In this document: positions 9,938 to 55,376 of the stretch, one piece after another
How positions within the stretch are numbered: the first letter of the stretch is position 1
How the letters are laid out: each line of letters opens with the position of its first letter
Assembly: GCA_020723765.1 (NCBI GenBank)
Contig: DYIF01000005.1
Span: forward strand, 713-64,712
Source of the DNA: Elusimicrobium minutum
GTDB lineage: Bacteria > Elusimicrobiota > Elusimicrobia > Elusimicrobiales > UBA9959
Direction: 5' to 3'
DNA length: 64,000 nucleotides
Notes under the pieces: generated by a model
What the model saw: only the letters and a program-made list of their open reading frames with translations
Database searches by the model: none
What the model was told of the DNA's origin: nothing
Program-made: the position numbers and the translations under genes

Positions 9938-10876
9938 TTAAAATTTATTTTTAAACCATTCCAAAGTTTTTAACAATCCTTCCTCAAAACCCACTTTCGG
10001 TTTATATTTGAGATCCTTTTTTATAAGAGTTATATCCGCCCACGTTTTCCTGACATCTCCGGCTCTTTTGGGTAAAAATCTTTTTTCAAGCTTATAGCCC
10101 AAAAACTTTTCAAGCAAAGAAGCTATCTCTATCAAAGAAGTGGTCCGGCCGCAAGCGACATTGTAAACTTTCCCGTTTGATTTTTCGGACAAAGCCGCTT
10201 TTATGTTAGCATCAACGACATTTGAAACATAAGTAAAATCTCTCGATTGCCTTCCGTCCCAGTGAATTTCAAGAGGTTTTTTCTTTAAAGCTAATTCTAT
10301 AAACTTGGGTATTACCACGGAATACATCGACTGTGGAGGTTGCTTCGGACCAAATACGTTAAAATATCTTAACGAAGTTGTCGGAAGACCGAAAGTTTTC
10401 GAAAACATAACGCAATAATACTCCGCGGCCAATTTGGAAACGGCGTAGGGAGATATCGGAGAGGGAGTAAAAGTTTCTTTCTGCGGGAATATTTTGCAAT
10501 CTCCGTAAACCGAGCTTGAAGAAGCGTATACTACTTTTTTTATACCGCATTCTTTGGCCGCCATAAGAACGTTTAAAGTTCCGGTTATGTTATTATCGTT
10601 TGCTCCGAACGGATTGTCTATAGATTTAGGGACCGAACGCATCGCCGCCTGATGGATTACGTAAGTAACGTTTTTGCATGCTTTTTTAATATCGGAAAAA
10701 TTTCTTATATCTCCTTTTATAATCTCGACTTCTTTTTCAAAAGGCTTTAAATTTTCTATCTTCCCTTCGGAAAAATTATCTATTATTCTTACCTTTTCCC
10801 CTCTTTTAACAAGCTCTTCGGCTATATTGGAGCCTATAAAACCGGCTCCGCCGGTAACAAGCCATAATCTTTTCAT
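9938..10876 (-). CDS. NAD-dependent nucleotide-sugar epimerase/dehydratase (extended SDR)
   Basis: The ORF track runs to 10906. The likely start is Met11 (10876) after a GGAG-type SD, which avoids overlap with the upstream gene. Motifs: MKRLWLVTGGAGFIGSN Rossmann motif and the YAVSK catalytic YxxxK. Confidence 0.85.
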   Translation of the reverse strand: MKRLWLVTGGAGFIGSNIAEELVKRGEKVRIIDNFSEGKIENLKPFEKEVEIIKGDIRNFSDIKKACKNVTYVIHQAAMRSVPKSIDNPFGANDNNITGTLNVLMAAKECGIKKVVYASSSSVYGDCKIFPQKETFTPSPISPYAVSKLAAEYYCVMFSKTFGLPTTSLRYFNVFGPKQPPQSMYSVVIPKFIELALKKKPLEIHWDGRQSRDFTYVSNVVDANIKAALSEKSNGKVYNVACGRTTSLIEIASLLEKFLGYKLEKRFLPKRAGDVRKTWADITLIKKDLKYKPKVGFEEGLLKTLEWFKNKF

Positions 10877-10886
10877 CAATTCTCCT

Positions 10887-11258
10887 CTATAGGTCTTTCT
10901 TTTCAAGCGCGTTTTTTACGGCTTCGAAAAGGTCGTCGGTATTAAAAGGTTTTGTTAAAAAAGCCACGACCTGATTGAATTTAACAAACAAGCTTCTGGA
11001 CGGCTCGAGAGCCGAAAGGACTATTATCGGTATTTTGGAAAGAGACTCGTCCTGGCTTATGCTCGTGGCTATGGAATAGCCGTCCACGCCGGGAAGCATA
11101 ACGTCCAGTATCATAAGATCCGGTTTAAATTCCTTAAGCGAATCCATTACTTCTCTTCCGTTATCGCATATCTTAATGGTATGTCCCAAAGACTCCATGG
11201 TAATTTGCAAAAGGTTGGATATCTCGGGGTCGTCGTCGACTATCATTATTTTCGCCAT
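10887..11258 (-). CDS. stand-alone response-regulator receiver protein (CheY-like)
   Basis: 123 aa. IMIVDDDPE, LMILDVMLPGVDG (phospho-acceptor Asp context), LTKPF. No output domain. Confidence 0.85.
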   Translation of the reverse strand: MAKIMIVDDDPEISNLLQITMESLGHTIKICDNGREVMDSLKEFKPDLMILDVMLPGVDGYSIATSISQDESLSKIPIIVLSALEPSRSLFVKFNQVVAFLTKPFNTDDLFEAVKNALEKKDL

Positions 11259-45505: not shown

Positions 45506-45581
45506 CTAATAGTTGACCAGACTAAATATAAAAAATATTATTTACTACCATTAACCTTAATAATTTATTTTTTATTAGCGA

Positions 45582-45616
45582 ACCACTTTTACAGACGATC
45601 GTTCGTATAAGTGGTC
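45582..45616. repeat. 35-bp nested imperfect palindrome, copy 1
   Basis: ACCACTTTTACAGACGATCGTTCGTATAAGTGGTC. It matches the copy at 46471..46505 at 33 of 35 positions, in the same orientation. Confidence 0.85.
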
Positions 45617-45727: not shown

Positions 45728-45811
45728 AACTTTAGACATTTAACATTCAACATTAATCTTTGAACATTCAACTTTGAACTTTAGACATTAGACTTTAAAC
45801 TTTGAACTATT
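45728..45811. repeat. 12 tandem heptamers (consensus RACWTTN) ending on the stop codon of the adjacent gene
   Basis: AACTTTA GACATTT AACATTC AACATTA ATCTTTG AACATTC AACTTTG AACTTTA GACATTA GACTTTA AACTTTG AACTATT. The last unit contains CTA (TAG stop of 45807..46337). Confidence 0.85.
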
Positions 45812-46337
45812 TGGCGTTTCTCTTTTTAAATGTTATTATCACTTTTCTGTTATCGGATATTCTGTATTTCAACGTGGAAGGGTCGGCTTTTTCGGAAATC
45901 TTTATTTTTTTAACAAATCTATTTTTCTTTTTAAAACTTTCGGATGTGTCGATAAAATCTTTTTTTTCGTAATTTAAAACCACATCTTTGCCTTTTACGT
46001 TAACGTAAGTTTTTCTCGGGTTAAGATTGGGTATATCCACCTCCGTAACCACCGTCTCATCCGTTTCCCTCTCAAATATCTTTAAGTTTTCGGTTAACTC
46101 GTTATTCTTTTTTACGTCTTTTTGGGCTGCGTTTTGAACCGCGTTTATTATATCGTTTTGAGCGTCCAGTATGAGTTTATGAGAGTTATCGCCGTTTAAA
46201 AACTCTTTCGAAAAAGCGTCCATATCGGTATTCAGCGTATTTCTTGCGGAATTTATTTCGTTTACCGAACTATTCGTTATCAATTTCTTATCCTGAGCCG
46301 ACATCAAAACCGAAAATAAAATTAATATAAACTTCAT
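45807..46337 (-). CDS. small secreted hypothetical protein
   Basis: The ORF track runs to 46388. A GAGGTGG SD precedes Met18 (46337): MKFILILFSVLMSAQDKK (signal peptide). It is Asn/Lys-rich with no recognisable domain, and it has its own promoter-like element. Confidence 0.55.
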   Translation of the reverse strand: MKFILILFSVLMSAQDKKLITNSSVNEINSARNTLNTDMDAFSKEFLNGDNSHKLILDAQNDIINAVQNAAQKDVKKNNELTENLKIFERETDETVVTEVDIPNLNPRKTYVNVKGKDVVLNYEKKDFIDTSESFKKKNRFVKKIKISEKADPSTLKYRISDNRKVIITFKKRNAK

Positions 46338-46399
46338 AACCACCTCTCTATAAGCCGAAAAAAATTTAAATCCAAACCTTTTCGGCAAACCCTAATTAA

Positions 46400-46427: not shown

Positions 46428-46470
46428 TAGTATTAACAATTTAATCAAATTTCTCTTTAATCTAACACTA

Positions 46471-46505
46471 ACCACTTATAAAGACGATCGTTCGTATAAG
46501 TGGTC
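46471..46505. repeat. 35-bp nested imperfect palindrome, copy 2
   Basis: ACCACTTATAAAGACGATCGTTCGTATAAGTGGTC. Outer 10-bp arms ACCACTTATA/TATAAGTGGT are perfectly complementary, with a central ACGATCGT palindrome. It lies between the hsdR stop and the promoter of 45807..46337. Confidence 0.85.
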
Positions 46506-46557: not shown

Positions 46558-49500
46558 TCAAAAACTTCGAATAGTATAAATATTTTCTCCTTTGTCGGGA
46601 TATGAATCGTAAATGTGTTGGAAAACCAATTCGCATTTTTGATGGTATAAATCGTCATTAAAAGATTCGGGCAATTTCTCCAGAACTTCTTCAATACATA
46701 ACTTAACCGATGCTCTTGCCTGTTGTTTTTTTCTCCAGTCTATTACTAATTTTTCCTTTTTTAACTTTTCCAATAATTCTTTTGCGATTTTCTTAACTCT
46801 TAAAATTTCTTTTTGTGTCAGATTGATAGGAGTATTTTTGGTAAGCAAGTCATATATAGCAAGTTCCTCTTCAGTGAGATTTTCCGAAATACTTCTTTTT
46901 TCTTCCTTATTTAGCGATTCTACAAGCTCCAGCAATTTTTTATAATACTCTTCGACATTTACCGAACCCGCGTTATACTCATTAACCAATTCCTGAAACT
47001 TTTCCAGAAAATTTATTCTGCTTTTGTTTAACATATACAAAGCCTGAAGTTTAATTTCTATGGCTTTTTTAACCCTTTCAGCGATAATTATTTTTTTGCC
47101 TTTTTCAAATTCTTTTTTCAATTTATTTATATCAATCTTTGTCAAATCCACAATACTACCGGCGACATATTCTTCAAAGGTTTCTTTTGAATAACGCGTA
47201 TCTACTTTAACTGACCGGTCTAACAAATCCGAAACCTGTTTAATTACATCCGAAATATCTATTTCCGGCGAAATTGAATTTATTTTTTTAGATATCGTGC
47301 CAAGAAGTTTAACTACAGGCTGATATTTGGAAACGAAGGTATCGGGGAGAATTGCTTTATAAGTTCTTTGTATGATTGAATTTTTAAGCGCAAAAGTTTT
47401 TTTTCTCTCATCGTTTCGAAGAATATTTTCCACTGCATTATCTATAAGATTTATGCATTCAAGCTCTTTGGAATTTAAAATTTTCTCAATATCTATATCC
47501 CATTTTGAAAACAAATCTTTTATTTCGTTTATATATTTTTCAAGCTGAGATATAAGTTCAGATTTTTCAACAATCGGTGAATTACTTATCCCTTCTTTGT
47601 CAGTAGTTATATAAATTGAAAGCGCCTGGTTTAATTGATATAAAATTCCTATATAATCCACTATAAGGCCAGCCACTTTGTTTTCACCAAAAACTCTATT
47701 AACTCTGGCTATCGTCTGCATTAAAGTATGGTTTTTCATCGGTTTATCTAAATAAATAGTCGAACAGGACGGCACATCAAACCCGGTCATCCACATTGCG
47801 CAAACAAAAACCAATCTTAAAGGATTATCCGGGTCTTTAAATTTTTCATCCAAAGCTTCTTTATTCATTCTTAAGCGATGAGGCAGGATATCCACTCCTT
47901 TTTTCTTTAAATCTTCAACTTCGTTTTGAGATTGAGAAACCACAACTGCCATATCGGTTTCTTTCATATATTTAATTTTTTGAAATATCTCTTCTCTTTT
48001 CTTATCATCCTGCTCTTTTTTTAAATCTTTTTCCAATTTCTCAATATAATTTAGCCAGTATTTCTTAACTTTATCATACATTTTAACTGCTGTGGCTTTG
48101 TCTATTGCAACTACCATAGCTTTTCCCATAAAACCGCGGTTCATAAAATGAATTACTATGTCTTTAGCTATTTCTTCAAGCCTATCCTCACGAGTAATAA
48201 GCTGATATTCTTTTGAAAATTCCCTTTCAAATTTTCTTTCTTCTTCATCCGTTAATTCCGCTTCTCCGAGGATTTTATAAATATCTTCATTTAGATTTAA
48301 ATTTTTGATATTTAAATGAGGTTTCCTGTTTTCATAATATAAAGGCACCGTCGCCTTATCCTCAATAGCCCGCTTAAAATCATAAATGCTGACATAATCA
48401 CCGAAAACCTCTTTTGTTTTTTCTTCGCCGGCTATTAAAGGCGTTCCTGTAAAAGCCATAAAAGCGGCATTAGGCAAAGCGTTTCTCATATTCATTGCAA
48501 AAATATCATACTGAGTTCTATGAGCTTCGTCCGCTATAACTATTATATCCGAGCGGTCGGAAATTACAGGATGGATTTTTCCTTTTTCAGTCCTAAACTT
48601 TTGTATCGTAGTAAATATAAACCTATGATTTTCGGTTAATAATTTTCTTAAATTTTCAGAGTCTTCGGCCCAGACCTGAGCGCCGGTTATAATACCGCTT
48701 CTAACAAACCGTTTATATGTCTGCTCGTCTAACTCCTTTCTGTCGGTTACTATTACAAATGTCCAGTTCCCAGGTATTTTTCTTAAAATTTTTTGGGAGA
48801 AGAAAATCATCGATTCGGTTTTACCGGAGCCCTGGGTATGCCAGAAAACCCCCAATTGTTTATTTGTTCTATTTTTATACACAGTATTAAAATTTCTTAT
48901 CGCTTTTTCTACCCCTAAGTACTGGTGATTTTTAGCTATTATTTTAATTAAGCCATTCTTTTCTTCCCTGAATATCGAATAATTTTCAATAATATCAAGA
49001 AATCTTTTTCTATCGCAGACCGCTTTTATAATCGTTTCAAGAGAAACAACCCCTTTTTCCCCTTCATCGTTTATTCTTTTCCACTCGGCAAAATGCTCCC
49101 AATCCGAAGAGATGCTTCCAACTCTACTTTCGCTTCCGTTTGAAAGAATAATAATTCCGTTATAATGAAAAATTTGAGGTATGGTATTTTTATAATCCCT
49201 TAAATTATTATCATAAGCTTCCTTGATATTTTTACTAAAAGCTTTTAATTCAATAAATAACAGCGGTATCCCGTTAACAAACCCTACAAGGTCAGCTCTT
49301 CTTGTGTAAATATCGCCGGAAACCCAGAACTGCGATGCTAAAAGAAAATCATTATTTTCTGGATTATCCCAGTCTATTATCTTTAATCTCTCGGAAACCG
49401 ACTCGTTTTTATTATTTAAACACTCTACAACAACGCCATCTTTAATTAATTGATAGACCTCTTTATTGGCATAAGCCATACCCATTAGATTTCTATCGGC

Positions 49501-49743
49501 GATAATTATATTTATAGCTTCGTTTATAAAATCATCCGAAACATTTGGATTAAGTTTTTTAATTGCCGGTTTAAGTCGGGAAACTAAAACTACGTCGCTT
49601 TTTGTCTCGCGACCTAAAAAACTTTTACCCGAATCAAACTCGCCATAACAATCTACAAACTCCCATCCCAAATTTTTAAATAACTCTATCGCAGGCTTTT
49701 CAACCATAGCCGATTCGGAATAGTTATTATTTGGAAGAGACAT
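46558..49743 (-). CDS. hsdR: type I restriction enzyme, R (endonuclease/translocase) subunit
   Basis: The ORF track runs to 49779. The likely start is Met13 (49743), directly after the upstream stop: MSLPNNNYSESAMVEKPAIELFKNLGW. Motifs: WHTQGSGKTES, IADEAHRTQ (DEAH), MQTIARVNR. Confidence 0.9.
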   Translation of the reverse strand: MSLPNNNYSESAMVEKPAIELFKNLGWEFVDCYGEFDSGKSFLGRETKSDVVLVSRLKPAIKKLNPNVSDDFINEAINIIIADRNLMGMAYANKEVYQLIKDGVVVECLNNKNESVSERLKIIDWDNPENNDFLLASQFWVSGDIYTRRADLVGFVNGIPLLFIELKAFSKNIKEAYDNNLRDYKNTIPQIFHYNGIIILSNGSESRVGSISSDWEHFAEWKRINDEGEKGVVSLETIIKAVCDRKRFLDIIENYSIFREEKNGLIKIIAKNHQYLGVEKAIRNFNTVYKNRTNKQLGVFWHTQGSGKTESMIFFSQKILRKIPGNWTFVIVTDRKELDEQTYKRFVRSGIITGAQVWAEDSENLRKLLTENHRFIFTTIQKFRTEKGKIHPVISDRSDIIVIADEAHRTQYDIFAMNMRNALPNAAFMAFTGTPLIAGEEKTKEVFGDYVSIYDFKRAIEDKATVPLYYENRKPHLNIKNLNLNEDIYKILGEAELTDEEERKFEREFSKEYQLITREDRLEEIAKDIVIHFMNRGFMGKAMVVAIDKATAVKMYDKVKKYWLNYIEKLEKDLKKEQDDKKREEIFQKIKYMKETDMAVVVSQSQNEVEDLKKKGVDILPHRLRMNKEALDEKFKDPDNPLRLVFVCAMWMTGFDVPSCSTIYLDKPMKNHTLMQTIARVNRVFGENKVAGLIVDYIGILYQLNQALSIYITTDKEGISNSPIVEKSELISQLEKYINEIKDLFSKWDIDIEKILNSKELECINLIDNAVENILRNDERKKTFALKNSIIQRTYKAILPDTFVSKYQPVVKLLGTISKKINSISPEIDISDVIKQVSDLLDRSVKVDTRYSKETFEEYVAGSIVDLTKIDINKLKKEFEKGKKIIIAERVKKAIEIKLQALYMLNKSRINFLEKFQELVNEYNAGSVNVEEYYKKLLELVESLNKEEKRSISENLTEEELAIYDLLTKNTPINLTQKEILRVKKIAKELLEKLKKEKLVIDWRKKQQARASVKLCIEEVLEKLPESFNDDLYHQKCELVFQHIYDSYPDKGENIYTIRSF

Positions 49744-49745
49744 AA

Positions 49746-51029
49746 TTAAAAATCCTTTTTTAATAATCTTTCTTGCCAATAACTTATAGTTTCTTCACTT
49801 ATTGTATCCCAATTAAAAGCCAAAAATATTTTTCGAGCTATTTCATTTGCCTTTTCCTTCCATGAAGATGTTAAATCAATCATATCTATCTTCATTTCAT
49901 AAGTGAGAGTTTTTTCTAAAGAAAAATAATTACCATGAAAATTAACTTCCGGATTTAAACAAATAAGTTTTCTATTATCGACATTAACTAAAGTTATATT
50001 AATGTTTAAGTATGAATTTCGAGATACTTCTTGATAATATCTTTTGAAAAATAAAAAAAACTCTGTAAGTGAATAAATTACGTTTATAAAATCTAATACT
50101 TGTTTCCCATCTTTTCTAAAAGATTTATCATCTTCCCCAAAAGTAGATACCCAAGCGAATAATCCGCTATTATAAAATCTCCATGCTTCGGTATGATATT
50201 CCCATTTAGCAAAAGATTGTCTTCCATTATTAAAATTAGTAGTATTTTTGTAATCAATATGTGGAAAATCCCAACCTCTTAAATCAACTTTATTTTTTTC
50301 CACTAATTCTTTTATCTTTTTCTGATCTAATCTATTATGAATATAATTCTCTGGATATGCAAAGATTTTCCAATAACCTTTATCTTTAATTATTCCAATC
50401 TTTTCAGTTGCAAATATAGAATACTGTTCAAACTCTAATTTGTATCTCTCTTTTGACTCTTGACTATATGTTAAACTCTTCCCTTCAATCAATTTTTTAA
50501 TGTTTTCCAATAATTCATTACTTTTTCTTCTAATAGCTCTATTTAAAAATTCTCTCATTTGTTCTGAAGAAGATATAACTTCGGTTGTCGCTTTTTCTGT
50601 TCTTATATAAATTTGTCCTTCTTGTAAAATTAATTTGTTATCTTGAGAGTGTAAGTTGTTTTTACAAATAACGGGTAATTCTTTAAATTCAGGCACATCA
50701 ATTATAACAACATATTTTTCATCAATATTAAACTTATAAATAAGACAAGAATATTCTGGGTCCGTATAATTGTGTAATAAATCATTAATTTTAGTTGAGT
50801 CAAAAGATTCAAAATCTTCTTTAGATAGACCTATAAATTCAAAATCTTTATCTCTTACACCAAACACAATCTTTCCACCATCTTGCGTATTAAACATAGC
50901 AATTATGTCTTTTATTACTTGTCCTTTTTCCGATTTTAAGGCATTATCCCAATTGAATTTTTCTTTATAGTCAAGATTTTTACTTTCATTTTTTCTTAAT
51001 AGCAACTCTTTTGCTTCTTTTTCTGTCAT
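49746..51029 (-). CDS. AlbA_2 (Schlafen-like, 'divergent AAA') domain protein with uncharacterised C-terminal domain
   Basis: 427 aa. The N-terminus ESKNLDYKEKF...IKDIIAMFNTQDGGKIVFGVRDKDFEFIGL...VVIIDVPEFKELPVICK...GQIYIRTEKAT fits the AlbA_2 pattern. I did not recognise the C-terminal 250 aa (RGWDFPH, WEYHTEAWRFYNSGLF). Confidence 0.65.
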   Translation of the reverse strand: MTEKEAKELLLRKNESKNLDYKEKFNWDNALKSEKGQVIKDIIAMFNTQDGGKIVFGVRDKDFEFIGLSKEDFESFDSTKINDLLHNYTDPEYSCLIYKFNIDEKYVVIIDVPEFKELPVICKNNLHSQDNKLILQEGQIYIRTEKATTEVISSSEQMREFLNRAIRRKSNELLENIKKLIEGKSLTYSQESKERYKLEFEQYSIFATEKIGIIKDKGYWKIFAYPENYIHNRLDQKKIKELVEKNKVDLRGWDFPHIDYKNTTNFNNGRQSFAKWEYHTEAWRFYNSGLFAWVSTFGEDDKSFRKDGKQVLDFINVIYSLTEFFLFFKRYYQEVSRNSYLNINITLVNVDNRKLICLNPEVNFHGNYFSLEKTLTYEMKIDMIDLTSSWKEKANEIARKIFLAFNWDTISEETISYWQERLLKKDF

Positions 51030-51032
51030 TAT

Positions 51033-52304
51033 TTAAATCTTCTCTTTATCAGTTTCTCTTACTTTAATCTCCAAATCTGAGACATCTAATTCACCGGAAA
51101 TAAGTTTTGGTAACAAAATATCTCGTATTTGACGAAGAATTTTGTTTTGTTTTTGATAAACTAATATTGAATTAATTATTGGTCTTGCTAATTTATCATA
51201 TTCTTCAATTATATTTTCTTTTGGAAATAACCATTTAATTCGTGCTAAACCTTCATTTGTCAAAGACATTTGAGTTGCACCAGTACAAAATATATCTTTT
51301 TGTTTATGAAATTCTTGCGACTTTATTGATATAAAAAGAAAACTTAACCACTTCTCAGATATAGCTTCAAATCCAACAAATCCTGATGACAGGATAATAG
51401 AATCTACTAAATCTAAATTAGGGGTAGAAAACAACAAAACTTTATAAGTATCTTTCATTCTTGCAAACCATACTGAATTTAAAACTGGTTGTTTTTGAGC
51501 ACGACTTGGTTTATTATGATAAGAATATTCAATCCCATCTTTAACAAAATCAATACCTTCTACATCCGCTGTCGCAAAATACTTTTTAGTCCCTTGATAA
51601 GGCAAAATATTTTCATTAACTAATCTTAAATATGGAATTTCTAAAAAAGTTTTCACTTCCCAGCCTTCGGGGATTTTTCCTAATTCGGAATCAACAAATT
51701 TAACTTTCTCATAACCGGGAAATCTAAATTTTACAAACCATTCTTTATAAATGGCATCAGCCATCTGCTCAAGAATTTTAATTCTTTTTGTATTATTTTC
51801 AATCAAATCATCATAAGCCGAAAGAATCGAAGCGATTTTTTGCTGTATTGGATATTTATGGATTTGCAACTCATACTCTTCAAAAAATTTTTTATTATAT
51901 ATTGCTTTGCCTGAACCAGTCCCCATAGCTATTGATTTGATTTTAGGTGTTTCATATATAAGACGATAATACACATATTCAGGAACATATTTTTTCTGAT
52001 TAACAATAATGGCATTTATTTGCTGATTAGTAAAACTATAAGTTTTAGTCATGCAAATTTTCCCTATAGTAGAACCAATACACACATAACAAACTGTTTT
52101 TGGCGGAAGAATTTTGTTTTTCTGACTAAGATAACCTAGTTTAGAGAGACCGCGTTCTGTATTTTGAATAAAATAAAAATCATAAGATAAAATATCTGTA
52201 GGAGTAATAAAAGGATAGTCATTTCCAAACAATTCAGGCTTTTTTGTGGATGGAGTTTTACCTGTAATGATTTCTCCCAAATCTTTTATTTTAATAGTTT
52301 GCAT
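51033..52304 (-). CDS. hsdS: type I restriction enzyme, S (specificity) subunit
   Basis: 423 aa. Two target-recognition halves separated by conserved helices: QQKIASILSAYDDLIENNTKRIKILEQMADAIYKEWFVKFRFPG and C-terminal QNKILRQIRDILLPKLISGEL. Confidence 0.85.
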   Translation of the reverse strand: MQTIKIKDLGEIITGKTPSTKKPELFGNDYPFITPTDILSYDFYFIQNTERGLSKLGYLSQKNKILPPKTVCYVCIGSTIGKICMTKTYSFTNQQINAIIVNQKKYVPEYVYYRLIYETPKIKSIAMGTGSGKAIYNKKFFEEYELQIHKYPIQQKIASILSAYDDLIENNTKRIKILEQMADAIYKEWFVKFRFPGYEKVKFVDSELGKIPEGWEVKTFLEIPYLRLVNENILPYQGTKKYFATADVEGIDFVKDGIEYSYHNKPSRAQKQPVLNSVWFARMKDTYKVLLFSTPNLDLVDSIILSSGFVGFEAISEKWLSFLFISIKSQEFHKQKDIFCTGATQMSLTNEGLARIKWLFPKENIIEEYDKLARPIINSILVYQKQNKILRQIRDILLPKLISGELDVSDLEIKVRETDKEKI

Positions 52305-52315
52305 AATTTAACAAT

Positions 52316-52810
52316 TTATTTACATTTATTTCTAATTTCTATTGCTTCTTCTACCCACGATTCAATATTATTTCTAATATAGTTATATACGTCCTTACTA
52401 TCATAATAAGGTGGATCATAAGTTTTTACTATGTATGATAACAATTTCCCATTAAGTTCAAAATTGTCAAAAGGATTCTTCCCTTTCAAACCTTGATTCC
52501 CATCCTTATCTTTTAAATTATGGATATATATTCCAAATAAACCTTTACCATTATTCCAAGATTTTTCAATCTCATAATTAATCCATTTTCTACCTGCAGT
52601 ATTTGTTCCTATAAGGACCACAGTGCAAGATTTATCTTTCAATTGCTCATCAATCCAATTTTCTATTGCTCGGTCTCCACCTCTTATGATTTGTTCCCAA
52701 TCATTATCAGACACTGGTTGGTTTCCTTCAATTATTCCTATATTTCTAATTTGCGATGCACGCCAGTTGTCCGCTTTATAATGAAAACTAAAAAATACCT
52801 TTCTTGCCAT
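52316..52810 (-). CDS. ThsB-like TIR-like domain protein (DUF1863 / MTH538 family)
   Basis: 164 aa. KVFFSFHYKADNWRASQIRN, SCTVVLIGTNTAGRKWINYEIEKS (conserved Glu, E80), GIYIHNLKDKDGNQGLKGKNPFD. From memory this pattern matches Thoeris ThsB / PF08937 proteins. Confidence 0.7.
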   Translation of the reverse strand: MARKVFFSFHYKADNWRASQIRNIGIIEGNQPVSDNDWEQIIRGGDRAIENWIDEQLKDKSCTVVLIGTNTAGRKWINYEIEKSWNNGKGLFGIYIHNLKDKDGNQGLKGKNPFDNFELNGKLLSYIVKTYDPPYYDSKDVYNYIRNNIESWVEEAIEIRNKCK

Positions 52811-52811
52811 T

Positions 52812-53213
52812 TTATTTTCCTCCTAATATTCTAATCACAACTACTACTAAAAGCATTGTCCCATAAAAAGGCAATAGAGTTTTTGAAAAAATAACTTTAG
52901 TCAAACATTCCATTTCATCTTTTCTAAGAAGTGATTTTGTATCTAAACAAAAATCTACTTTTTCTAATTGTCTTGCCTTATCATAAAATTTTCGATATTC
53001 TCTTTCTATTTTTAAAAAATACCCATCTAAAATCCAAAAAACTATTATTGGTAAAAAAGCCACATTAACAAATGCTATATTTGAATCTTTAGCAGACAAA
53101 GCAAACAAAGCAGAAACTAAAATTGCAGTCCATTCTTTTAAAAGAAAAGAATTATTAGCCATACGACTGATAATATTTTGAATCATTTCTAAATATCTTA
53201 TTTTATCTTCCAT
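52812..53213 (-). CDS. small three-helix membrane protein, candidate effector (SLATT-like topology, hypothesis)
   Basis: The ORF track runs to 53249 from a TTG. An AGAGGT SD precedes ATG Met13 (53213): MEDKIRYLEMIQNIISRMANNSF. This amphipathic helix is followed by TM helices WTAILVSALFALSA and VAFLPIIVFWILDGYFL, a charged helix KIEREYRKFYDKARQ, and a C-terminal TM LLPFYGTMLLVVVVIRIL. Confidence 0.55.
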   Translation of the reverse strand: MEDKIRYLEMIQNIISRMANNSFLLKEWTAILVSALFALSAKDSNIAFVNVAFLPIIVFWILDGYFLKIEREYRKFYDKARQLEKVDFCLDTKSLLRKDEMECLTKVIFSKTLLPFYGTMLLVVVVIRILGGK

Positions 53214-53220
53214 ATTACCT

Positions 53221-53802
53221 CTAATGTTTATAAGGTTTTCTCCCTTCAAGCCAACTATTGAAACTTACATATATATCGACATCATCATGAATCCATAATG
53301 TCATTTTACCTGAACCTTCAATCCGATCTTTTGTGACATAAGGATAAAGTCCTAAATATTCCTGTCCCTTATATTCATCGGTTATTGATGATGACTGGGA
53401 AATGGGTAGTATTGCAACTTTTCCTTTTAAAGCATCAAAATAACCAAGTTCCCATGACATCCACTTTGAATTTGGTGAATTTTCAGATGTAACAAAAAAC
53501 AAACTCTTACAACACTTCATTCTTTTGCGAATAATTTCCGCAGTCTCTTTATTGACTTTTCCTCGATTTAATTGCTTATCTTCTATCCAATCAACATAAG
53601 TTGAAAAACCCATATTTTCAATTATAGTTTTTACTCCTAAAATTTCTTCAGCATCGGTATAACTATGTGAAATAAAAATATCATAGGTTTCGCCTTCAGA
53701 AAATGATAACGATGCTTTTTTTAGAATACCAATCGTATTTTCATGTAATAAGCAATATTCTTTTCTTACTTCTTTTATTTCCGCTTTTGTAAATAAAGCC
53801 AT
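53221..53802 (-). CDS. TIR-domain protein
   Basis: 193 aa. YDIFISHSYTDAEE (beta-A/BB-loop context), CCKSLFFVTSENSPNSKWMSWELGYFD (conserved Glu, E118). About 38-aa N-terminal extension. No other domain. Confidence 0.75.
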   Translation of the reverse strand: MALFTKAEIKEVRKEYCLLHENTIGILKKASLSFSEGETYDIFISHSYTDAEEILGVKTIIENMGFSTYVDWIEDKQLNRGKVNKETAEIIRKRMKCCKSLFFVTSENSPNSKWMSWELGYFDALKGKVAILPISQSSSITDEYKGQEYLGLYPYVTKDRIEGSGKMTLWIHDDVDIYVSFNSWLEGRKPYKH

Positions 53803-53816
53803 TTTACTTTACCTTC

Positions 53817-55376
53817 TCATCTTTTAGTTTTAAGTATTTTTGAAATATTTGTTGATATTTTTTCTTCTAATTCTTTAGCTTCCGCGTTTAGTTTTTCTAA
53901 TTCATCGTTTAATTCTTTAATTTTTTCTTTAAAATCAAAATCTTCCTCATCTTTGTCGGCAACTCCCACATATCTTCCGGGATTTAAACTCCATCCCTGC
54001 TTTTCTATCTCTTTTATATCGGCTACTTTGCAAAGCCCCAACACATCCCTATATTTAGATTCTGGAAAGTTTTCATTTAAGATTTTCTCGCTTCCATATC
54101 TATTTTCCGGTTTTTCTTCTCTATAGAGTTTTACGATATTTGATATAAATTCTATCTGCTCGGGGGTAAATTCCCTGTGGGCTCTGTCAATCTGGTTATA
54201 TATGTTTCTTGCATCTATAAATAATACTTTATCCCTTCTTTTTGTGTTTATTTTTGATTTATCAAAAAACCATAACGTACAGGGAAGAGTAACGGTATAA
54301 AAAAAGTTTGAACTTATTGCTATCATAACATCCACTACTCCGCTTTCAATAATCTTTTTTCTTATCTCCATCTCGCTTGCTCTTGCGTCGCTTGCGGAGT
54401 TTGCCATAACAAAACCAGCTCTTCCATTTTTATTTAGAGCGCTATAAAACAATTGAATCCATATATAATTGCCGTTATCTACGGAAGGCATGCCAAAAGG
54501 AAACCTTTTAACATCGCTTTTTATTCTTTCTTTGTCTATTCCGTTTACATTAAACGGTGGATTTGCCATCACAAAATCGAATTTTCCAACCATGTCATGC
54601 AAATCTTCATAATAAGAATTACCCTGAAGAATATCCCCTGAAAGACCATGAACCGCCAAATTCATTTTACAAAGATTAACAGTTTCGCTTGTTTTCTCAA
54701 CTCCATAAACACTTATTTCATCAACCGCTCTTTTTTTATGCTCTTCTACAAATTCGGCACTTTGAACAAACATACCGCCGGACCCGCATGCCGGGTCAAA
54801 TATTTTTCCATGAAACGGTTCAATTATTGAAACTATTAATTTAACAAGACAGGTAGGGGTGAAAAACTCGCCGCCATGCTGACCTTCTTTTATTGCAAAT
54901 TGTCCTAAAAAATATTCGTAAATTTTACCGAAAGCATCACCTTCTATATCGTCCGGTATGGAAGACATCAATTTTAACAATTCTATAAGTAAAGATTTTT
55001 CAAATCTGTTATAAGATTTAGGAAGAATACCTTTAAGGTCCTCATTTTCATTTTCAATAGCTTTCATAGCCTCGTTTATGGCTTTTCCTATATCGGCACT
55101 TTCAGGTAATTTTAATAAGTATGAAAATCTTGCATTCTCAGGCAAATACATAACTCCAGCTGCTTGGAAATCTGTTTTTCCTATTTTTCTTCTTAAATTT
55201 GTTTTTTGGGAAAATATTTTATCTTGTTTTGTAAATTTATAGTCGGCATACTTTAAAAATATAAGACCCAAAACCGGGACGGAATACTCGGAAGATTTTA
55301 AATCGGAATTTGCCCTTAATTTATCCGCGATATTCCATAATCTATTCTCAAGTTCGGAAAGCGTTTCTTTCGTCAT
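53817..55376 (-). CDS. hsdM: type I restriction enzyme, M (N6-adenine methyltransferase) subunit
   Basis: 519 aa. HsdM_N ([36 protein letters not shown]), SAM motif [12 protein letters not shown], catalytic MANPPFN. Confidence 0.95.

Follow-up and report, generated by a model that had tools for sequence, protein, structure and literature searches.

Genes and layout of the operon

The 64,000-nt stretch of Elusimicrobium minutum contig DYIF01000005.1 analysed here (the window) carries seven closely packed minus-strand genes between positions 46558 and 55376, in the order hsdM, thsB1, thsF, thsB2, hsdS, a gene for a Schlafen/AlbA_2-family protein (AlbA_2 below), and hsdR. Domain profiles from Pfam, PADLOC and NCBIfam back the identity of all seven (Table 1; loci and proteins used for comparison have L- and P-numbers). 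The genes for a type I restriction-modification (R-M) system are thus interleaved with a cassette that is assigned to type V Thoeris and with a gene for a predicted ribonuclease (RNase). The composite operon is real, and is a further example of the known nesting of defence genes in R-M operons.

Table 1. Genes of the composite operon and the hairpin downstream of it (positions in the window)
Feature	Position	Strand	Size and basis
hsdM, methyltransferase subunit	53817-55376	-	519 aa; Pfam, PADLOC
thsB1, TIR-domain sensor/signal synthase	53221-53802	-	193 aa; PADLOC ThsB, Pfam ThsB_TIR/TIR_2
thsF, small three-helix membrane effector (by homology)	52812-53213	-	133 aa from ATG 53213; open reading frame reaches TTG at 53249
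thsB2, second TIR-domain sensor/signal synthase	52316-52810	-	164 aa; Pfam ThsB_TIR, PADLOC
hsdS, specificity subunit	51033-52304	-	423 aa, full length; Pfam, PADLOC
Schlafen/AlbA_2-family protein	49746-51029	-	427 aa; predicted RNase N-domain and uncharacterised C-domain (~189-427)
hsdR, restriction/translocase subunit	46558-49743	-	1061 aa from ATG 49743; open reading frame reaches TTG at 49779
36-nt hairpin	46470-46505		~50 nt 3' of the hsdR stop; repeat D4, RNA fold

When the longest open reading frames (ORFs) are taken, the intergenic distances from hsdM to hsdR are 14, -29, 1, 11, 3 and -34 nt. Both overlaps vanish, giving gaps of 7 and 2 nt, when the ATG starts supported by homology are used for thsF (53213, set by the alignment of homologues) and hsdR (49743, set by the gene calls in sister operons). 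Purine-rich motifs resembling Shine-Dalgarno (SD) sequences (GAGAAGG, AGAGG, TAGGAGGA, GAGAAG, AAAGGA) lie 6-10 nt 5' of six of the seven starts, and four of them are inside the preceding gene or span its end. Among the seven starts inspected, that of hsdS has no SD-like motif upstream. No terminator is predicted inside the operon, and all seven genes almost certainly form one transcription unit.

The operon has a GC content of 30.6%, compared with 37.5% in its flanks, and all 378 other 8.8-kb segments have at least 35.6% (mean 37.5, sd 1.0). A sequence-only reading of this stretch had described the same gene order, which is exact, together with the tight spacing (gaps of 14 nt or less), the SDs within preceding genes, the AT-richness and the lack of a mobility gene, all of which hold. 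The PADLOC run that it had proposed matched hsdM, hsdS, hsdR, ThsB and PDC-M50A/B.

The type I R-M genes

HsdM matches N6_Mtase (7e-84) and HsdM_N (3e-21) in Pfam and MTase_I in PADLOC (7e-224), and its translation shows the motifs NPPF and FDPACGSGG. HsdS matches Pfam Methylase_S in its first half (1e-20) and the PADLOC Specificity_I models over its full length (for example, residues 1-410 on a 403-position model). These matches fit a specificity subunit with two target-recognition domains. It can be aligned with its relatives only in the conserved central and C-terminal parts, which is expected because target-recognition domains vary. HsdR has the Pfam domains HSDR_N (7e-48), SWI2_SNF2 (1.5e-71), T1R_D3-like and T1RH-like_C, matches NCBIfam hsdR (3.7e-154, 514.8 bits against a cut-off of 284.55) and PADLOC REase_I (8e-178), and shows DEAH and D...ExK motifs. 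The type I R-M system has a complete gene set with intact subunits.

The Thoeris cassette between hsdM and hsdS

Type V Thoeris consists of ThsB and ThsF, the latter a three-helix membrane protein annotated as DUF2270 (Yirmiya et al. 2025 preprint from the Sorek laboratory, 10.64898/2025.12.03.692087). Its validation in B. subtilis used a clone of the two genes without R-M, which gave defence. In the same preprint, the phage-induced production of 3' cyclic ADP-ribose (3'cADPR) and the activation of the effector are reported for the B. thuringiensis system only, and the 1NLA3E-type system is not activated by 3'cADPR alone. The word 'restriction' does not occur in its main text.

Homology to these proteins assigns thsB1-thsF-thsB2 to type V Thoeris, with two sensors for one effector. 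The validated type V ThsB of Bacillus sp. 1NLA3E has a TIR domain with 50% identity to ThsB1, and another TIR tabled as 'DUF2270 - Type V' (Table S1 of the preprint) reaches 58%. ThsB2 has 60-65% identity over ~150 aa to three TIRs tabled in the same way (Table S1). ThsB1 matches the PADLOC ThsB model PDLC00422 (5e-63) and Pfam ThsB_TIR (1e-5), and ThsB2 matches Pfam ThsB_TIR (5e-28) and PADLOC ThsB (5.5e-76) and PDC-M50B (1.3e-67). The conserved glutamate is E118 in ThsB1, within SWELGYFD, and E80 in ThsB2, within NYEIEKS, both in W..(Y/W)E-type motifs; we take its role to be catalytic, as for E85 of BcThsB. The cassette reads as two ThsB sensors sharing a single ThsF.

The small membrane protein matches PADLOC PDC-M50A (7.8e-44), and the PDC-M50A and PDC-M50B genes are 1 nt apart and co-oriented. 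Its AlphaFold2 (AF2) model has a predicted local distance difference test score (pLDDT) of 85 and helices at residues 2-43, 47-82 and 113-132, and hydrophobic segments lie at 44-67 and 112-133, with a shorter one at 28-42. The link to the validated system comes from L172, a B. cereus-group contig whose TIR protein is identical at 251 of 251 residues to the validated ThsB of B. thuringiensis DAR 81934. The gene directly downstream of it encodes P0202 (141 aa), which aligns with the window protein over 128 aa at 45% identity (E 5e-36). Because P0202 adjoins a ThsB of the validated type and matches the window protein, the latter is a ThsF homologue. The validated-type system in L172 (3682-6426) lies beside a UvrD-helicase gene and an OLD-like TOPRIM/AAA_15 gene, which look like a Gabija-like pair in an ordinary defence island.

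The window gene is filed as ThsF by this homology and not by the Pfam DUF2270 label. Sub-threshold DUF2270 matches occur in six of 33 ThsF-family members, the best of them scoring 16 bits where the cut-off is 25 (E 0.0087) and spanning profile positions 24-92 of 184. Bacillales and plasmid ThsF homologues have no DUF2270 match, and the precomputed PF10028 label is absent from 240 homologues among the matches listed. The labels DUF3278 and DUF3899 were set aside for ThsF, being weak or from other sources and reflecting resemblance at the level of topology.

The ThsF family is large, with members of ~133 residues across bacterial and archaeal phyla that have three hydrophobic helices and, at the N-terminus, a helix of strong conservation. 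No Pfam or NCBIfam model reaches threshold on this family (A1; P0201-P0313), and its members are labelled 'hypothetical' or 'DUF3899', while the preprint says DUF2270. The database product of the window thsF gene is a 116-aa protein, P0001, that starts at the third in-frame ATG. This annotated start is probably too far downstream, since it drops the most conserved part of the family, the N-terminal helix with the invariant K4, L8, Q12 and R17.

The Schlafen/AlbA_2 gene between hsdS and hsdR

AlbA_2 matches Pfam SLFN_AlbA_2 (PF04326; 4e-18, 66.5 bits against a cut-off of 25.3), which is its only Pfam family. The AF2 model (pLDDT 88) has two domains separated by a disordered linker. With E-values from 2e-6 to 1e-3, Foldseek matches the N-domain to DIP2311 (3LMM), the tRNase domain of SAMD9 (9O0D) and the nuclease domains of SLFN5, SLFN11, SLFN13 and SLFN14 (the matches include 5YD0, 7FEX and 7ZEL). 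No significant Foldseek match involves the C-domain (189-427). In a sequence alignment of 30 homologues, residues E15, K22 and D41 never vary, and D20 is kept in at least 90% of the sequences. The catalytic E17 and D22 of CbCash, a tRNase of the Schlafen kind from type III CRISPR systems, show the same E-x4-D spacing as E15 and D20 (PMC13462974). AlbA_2 is predicted to be a prokaryotic Schlafen-fold tRNase/RNase. A role as transcription regulator of the operon was rejected, as Pfam finds no helix-turn-helix or ATPase domain and the fold and residues are nuclease-like.

In the homologues P0188, P0190-P0195 and P0198, the AlbA_2 N-domain (44-54% identical) is fused to EAL, HD/HDIG or response-regulator receiver domains, which suggests that this domain is combined with varied signalling modules.

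Related operons and exchange of the inserts

The nearest hsd operon, L085, has the order hsdM - 38-aa ORF - hsdS - AlbA_2 - hsdR and lacks Thoeris. Its HsdM is 91%, its AlbA_2 83-84% and its HsdR 85% identical to the window proteins, and DNA homology to the window ends at the hsdM stop codon and restarts inside hsdS. Two further operons have Thoeris together with an unrelated gene in the other slot: L081 (Elusimicrobiales), with hsdM - two small ORFs - TIR1 - ThsF - ThsB - hsdS - RhuM/Fic - hsdR, and L082, with GmrSD - second ThsF paralogue - TIR1 - ThsF - TIR2 - hsdS - RhuM/Fic - hsdR. Compared with the window, HsdM is 76% identical (L081), TIR1 68-73%, ThsF 72-78% and HsdR 69-72%.

The two junctions vary independently, because L085 keeps AlbA_2 without Thoeris and L081 and L082 keep Thoeris with RhuM/Fic. 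Judging from these operons, both inserts act as swappable cassettes at two internal hsd junctions, and the same independent variation led us to reject a single functional system of seven genes. Within the cassette, the L081 ThsB2 (10413-10916) is a swapped allele, since it is only 40% identical to the window ThsB2 and stands next to a 78%-identical ThsF.

In L081, the target-recognition domain of hsdS that adjoins the swapped ThsB2 is also replaced. In L082 (266-4187), the hsdM-hsdS slot holds the GmrSD type IV restriction gene and a tandem of two ThsF-ThsB pairs. Of the two ThsFs there, the second has 37% identity to the window ThsF and matches the family profile with E 3e-38.

Between the window and L081, L082 or L085, the synonymous divergence (pS) of the cassette genes is 0.40-0.47, compared with 0.55-0.82 for hsdM and hsdR of the same operon pairs. 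This suggests that the cassettes were exchanged after the hsd backbones had diverged. The ratio of nonsynonymous to synonymous divergence (dN/dS) is 0.12-0.29 for all embedded genes, with 0.14 for AlbA_2 against L085. The embedded genes are intact and, by these ratios, under purifying selection.

ThsF loci in other genomes

In a sample of 80 other genome loci with ThsF, searched for hsd genes by tblastn and iterative hidden Markov models, a TIR gene neighbours ThsF in nearly all cases. The same three TIR clusters recur, and most of the remaining loci have TIRs of other subfamilies. About 55 loci have a TIR2-like gene directly downstream of ThsF, about 11-15 have a TIR1-like gene upstream of it, and eight have both. 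Bt-like TIR genes occur in five loci, and their position directly upstream of ThsF was confirmed in L048 and L027. Both gene orders exist, ThsB before ThsF in the 1NLA3E-type system and L175, and ThsF before ThsB in PDC-M50.

A complete hsd set was found near ThsF in none of the 80 loci, and isolated hsd-like genes in four. These are an hsdR on the opposite strand 6.6 kb from ThsF (L012), other methylases (L027 and L067) and an hsdS fragment (L041). L027 has its ThsB-ThsF pair in a region that resembles an integrative and conjugative element, with a resolvase, a type IV secretion system coupling protein, orphan methylases and RadC.

The family is also found on plasmids, in 134 records of which 84 are conjugative, and the ThsB-ThsF pair occurs there too. 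Klebsiella and Escherichia have many such pairs on their conjugative plasmids. In the one such region examined, on the Klebsiella plasmid NZ_AP022022.1 (L169), the pair has a DUF1380 gene and an orphan DNA methylase next to it. No plasmid match was obtained for the V. cholerae-type type V TIR, and a B. cereus plasmid match, H1, was ruled out as Thoeris because it lies in a SIR2/TIR context without ThsF.

Flanks of the operon

The flanking housekeeping genes are guaA (GMP synthase), an IMP dehydrogenase-like gene, and genes for a haloacid dehalogenase-type (HAD) hydrolase, an amidohydrolase and a UbiA prenyltransferase. No tRNA, integrase or other mobility gene, or direct repeats bracketing the whole island, were found around the operon.

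The hairpin 3' of hsdR is a possible end of the transcription unit. The 91-nt minus-strand stretch that contains it folds at -18.9 kcal/mol (z = -3.45). A second copy of the 36-nt repeat, 94% identical, is at 45581-45616, and the window has no third copy. They flank an AT-rich ORF of 193 aa (45807-46388) with no assigned function, and the second copy lies 3' of this ORF. The paired hairpins may be terminators or the marks of a small co-inserted unit. Directly downstream of the same ORF, a ~30-nt AACTTTAGACATT-type repeat has three overlapping copies at 45728-45808.

Comparison with known systems

Like described type V Thoeris systems, the window has TIR genes beside a three-helix membrane effector of ~135 aa, here flanking it. 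It differs from them in having two ThsBs of different TIR clusters for one ThsF, in the location of the cassette inside a type I R-M operon, and in a signal that is presumed from the characterised systems.

The 'guilt-by-embedding' survey looked at genes nested inside BREX, DISARM and type I R-M operons. It collected 17,432 of them, 96.7% co-oriented, and is the basis of the PADLOC PDC models (Payne et al. 2024, 10.1101/2024.01.29.577857). PDC-M50 is its embedded cassette CAS_00164, found in host operons of one or more of these kinds and listed as a candidate without a proposed mechanism. In the literature searched, the name PDC-M50 is absent from the main texts and appears in a supplement only. 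The window cassette matches both M50A and M50B and is co-oriented with its host operon, like most cassettes of this sort. It differs in its extra upstream ThsB and in the unrelated embedded gene in the other slot.

Two systems are known from the hsdS-hsdR site itself, TgvAB in VPI-2 of Vibrio cholerae (PMC11411939) and DarTG2 in a type I R-M operon of enteropathogenic E. coli (EPEC; PMC12255303). Both act independently of HsdR, and for TgvAB the full cluster protects more than the embedded genes alone. Their authors suggest complementary layers of defence and a recombination hotspot. The window resembles these cases in having a probably independent defence system inside a type I R-M operon at this site. 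The cargo families differ, and the window fills both internal junctions at once.

In the prr locus (prrA-D), which encodes the type I R-M system EcoprrI, the gene for the anticodon nuclease PrrC lies between hsdS and hsdR. The window likewise has a predicted tRNA-targeting nuclease in this position, on the same strand and tightly packed. PrrC, however, combines an ABC-ATPase with the PrrC nuclease, and the window protein is an unrelated Schlafen/AlbA_2. PrrC is also embedded almost exclusively (10.1101/2024.01.29.577857), whereas the AlbA_2 family adjoins R-M at about one in five loci.

The Schlafens called 'Cluster 4' have an uncharacterised C-terminal domain and lie near R-M systems (PMC13462974). 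The window protein shares with Cash and Cluster 4 proteins an N-terminal Schlafen domain with E-x4-D, an uncharacterised C-domain and the R-M association. Unlike Cash, it has no Csx15/CARF-like sensor or CRISPR link, and its likeness to Cluster 4 is one of description.

Rlo genes lie in hsd loci of Campylobacter jejuni (Miller et al. 2005), and RloF is described as a DUF262 protein in the account cited in PMC11411939. As in Campylobacter, variable extra genes occupy type I R-M junctions in the window. The window inserts are TIR, ThsF and Schlafen genes, set apart from the Rlo genes by family descriptions. The Rlo families other than RloF also differ from TIR, ThsF and Schlafen.

A probable layered operon and the alternatives to it

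We consider it probable that this is a layered operon, in which two self-sufficient defence cassettes are linked to R-M genetically and do not depend physically on the Hsd complex. The gene identities, the homology to a validated system, the presence or absence of the modules and the purifying selection are shown here; we infer that the genes are co-transcribed, which signal is used, that ThsF forms a pore, that the Schlafen protein cuts RNA and that the layers are independent. The R-M enzyme would be the first line, against unmodified DNA. Upon infection, ThsB1 and/or ThsB2 would turn NAD+ into a cyclic ADP-ribose signal, which is 3'cADPR in characterised systems and would presumably activate ThsF. 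ThsF would then oligomerise into a membrane-disrupting ring, and the infected cell would be stopped. The Schlafen N-domain would cut tRNA or other RNA, presumably switched on via the uncharacterised C-domain. These two modules of the abortive-infection (Abi) type would act independently on phages that escape restriction, and the genetic link would lie in co-regulation, co-transfer and the exchange of cassettes at two hotspots in the operon.

Several points weigh against the layered operon. The promoter scan is at chance level (50 sites, against 53.4 in shuffles). Co-transcription is presumed, as are the signal, the ThsF pore and the Schlafen RNase activity. The window ThsF has no match to Pfam DUF2270 (PF10028), the family as which the preprint annotates ThsF. 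The lower pS of the cassettes may be partly compositional, since they are more AT-rich. On the side of linkage, all three of the most closely related ThsF genes on informative contigs, those of the window, L081 and L082, are nested in hsd operons. Selection for the hsd-Thoeris linkage itself may have acted, because the nesting has persisted to ~70-78% protein identity. The short contig L041, with the order YhcG - hsdS - ThsF - ThsB - DUF1016/YhcG, may be a further embedded case. For the Schlafen gene, hsdS (6), hsdM (4) and hsdR (4) are the sole recurrent neighbours of the AlbA_2 family in 82 loci (80 from metagenomes, and L085 and L086), and AlbA_2 occupies the hsdS-hsdR slot, that of prrC, in both the window operon and L085.

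The sequence-only reading had suggested that the nested genes may form a guard response triggered when phage anti-restriction factors disable the type I enzyme, citing prrC and the Rlo genes. These precedents are the right literature, and AlbA_2 is indeed in the prrC slot. A single R-M-dependent guard response is not supported, as homology places the TIR-membrane-TIR cassette in type V Thoeris, a kind that defends without R-M, and the two slots vary independently. That reading had named a lack of linkage to hsd genes in other genomes as part of what would refute it, and for Thoeris this is what the 80 loci show. For AlbA_2 the association with type I R-M is genuine but incomplete. Of the 26 informative loci, which have flanks of 3 kb or more on each side, four carry a complete type I R-M gene set, a number that rises to 5-8 when partial sets or other methylases are counted; most of the informative loci have no hsd genes.

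A guard function for the Schlafen gene only, on the model of PrrC, is unlikely. The RNase would be latent on the Hsd complex and freed when an Ocr-, ArdA- or Stp-like protein disables the enzyme, and tRNA cleavage would abort the infection. The shared slot and the recurrent hsd neighbours fit such a role, as do the fold of known tRNases and the tight coupling to hsdR, which follows AlbA_2 after 2 nt and has its SD inside the AlbA_2 3' end. In L111 and L112, a 39%-identical AlbA_2 is paired with a 65%-identical HsdM of the same subfamily, and PMC13462974 reports a large R-M-associated Schlafen cluster with C-terminal domains of unknown kind. Against this, about 18-22 of the 26 loci with adequate flanks have no hsd genes nearby, a pattern opposite to that of PrrC. 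Copies of AlbA_2 that are linked to hsd genes differ in place and orientation: some stand between S and R, others upstream of M, divergent from M, or between M and S. The same slot holds unrelated Fic/RhuM in sister operons and the HsdR-independent DarTG2 or TgvAB elsewhere, and AlbA_2 matches no PADLOC family at E <= 0.01 and hence not PrrC.

It is quite unlikely that the Schlafen protein is a second, independently evolved guard of R-M, that is, a latent tRNase whose C-domain is docked on HsdM, HsdS or HsdR and is released by phage anti-restriction proteins. If this were true, the operon would join restriction, a protein that guards it and an Abi system based on signalling.

We also give little credence to the view that the inserts are hitch-hiking cargo, without functional co-ordination or of marginal benefit only, and are kept mainly because R-M addiction makes the operon hard to lose and homologous recombination in the conserved hsd flanks makes it easy to exchange. 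The mosaic of presence and absence, the sharp homology breaks at gene boundaries among related operons and the low pS of the cassettes are in line with it. So are the hotspot suggested in the literature for the hsdS-hsdR site and the different genomic neighbourhoods of the operon in the window and L081, both without mobility genes. However, all embedded genes are intact and under purifying selection, same-strand embedding with spacing of the translational-coupling type is the rule in the survey of Payne et al. 2024, and the full TgvAB cluster protects better than its embedded genes do on their own. This view overlaps with the layered operon more than it excludes it.

Very improbable, finally, is a coupling of Thoeris to R-M, in which ThsB would sense the Hsd complex (its state or its DNA products) and not a phage component: the nesting is conserved in the window, L081 and L082, and TIR1 starts 14 nt past the hsdM stop with its own SD, but validated type V systems need ThsB and ThsF alone in B. 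subtilis, ThsB makes 3'cADPR upon infection without R-M, the 80 other ThsF loci lack full hsd sets, the family is common on conjugative plasmids, and the nearest hsd operon, L085, has no cassette at all.

Significance

For annotation, where the ThsF family is a naming gap, the locus shows that the recently defined type V Thoeris corresponds to the unnamed PADLOC candidate PDC-M50, with ThsF as PDC-M50A. The window operon and L085 would be compact test cases for how R-M-associated Schlafens are activated. The comparison of four operons documents exchange at both internal hsd junctions and supports these junctions as hotspots for defence genes. The locus itself, in an Elusimicrobiales-like metagenome-assembled genome from a poorly studied phylum, is a clean natural case of three predicted defence layers in what is almost certainly one transcription unit.

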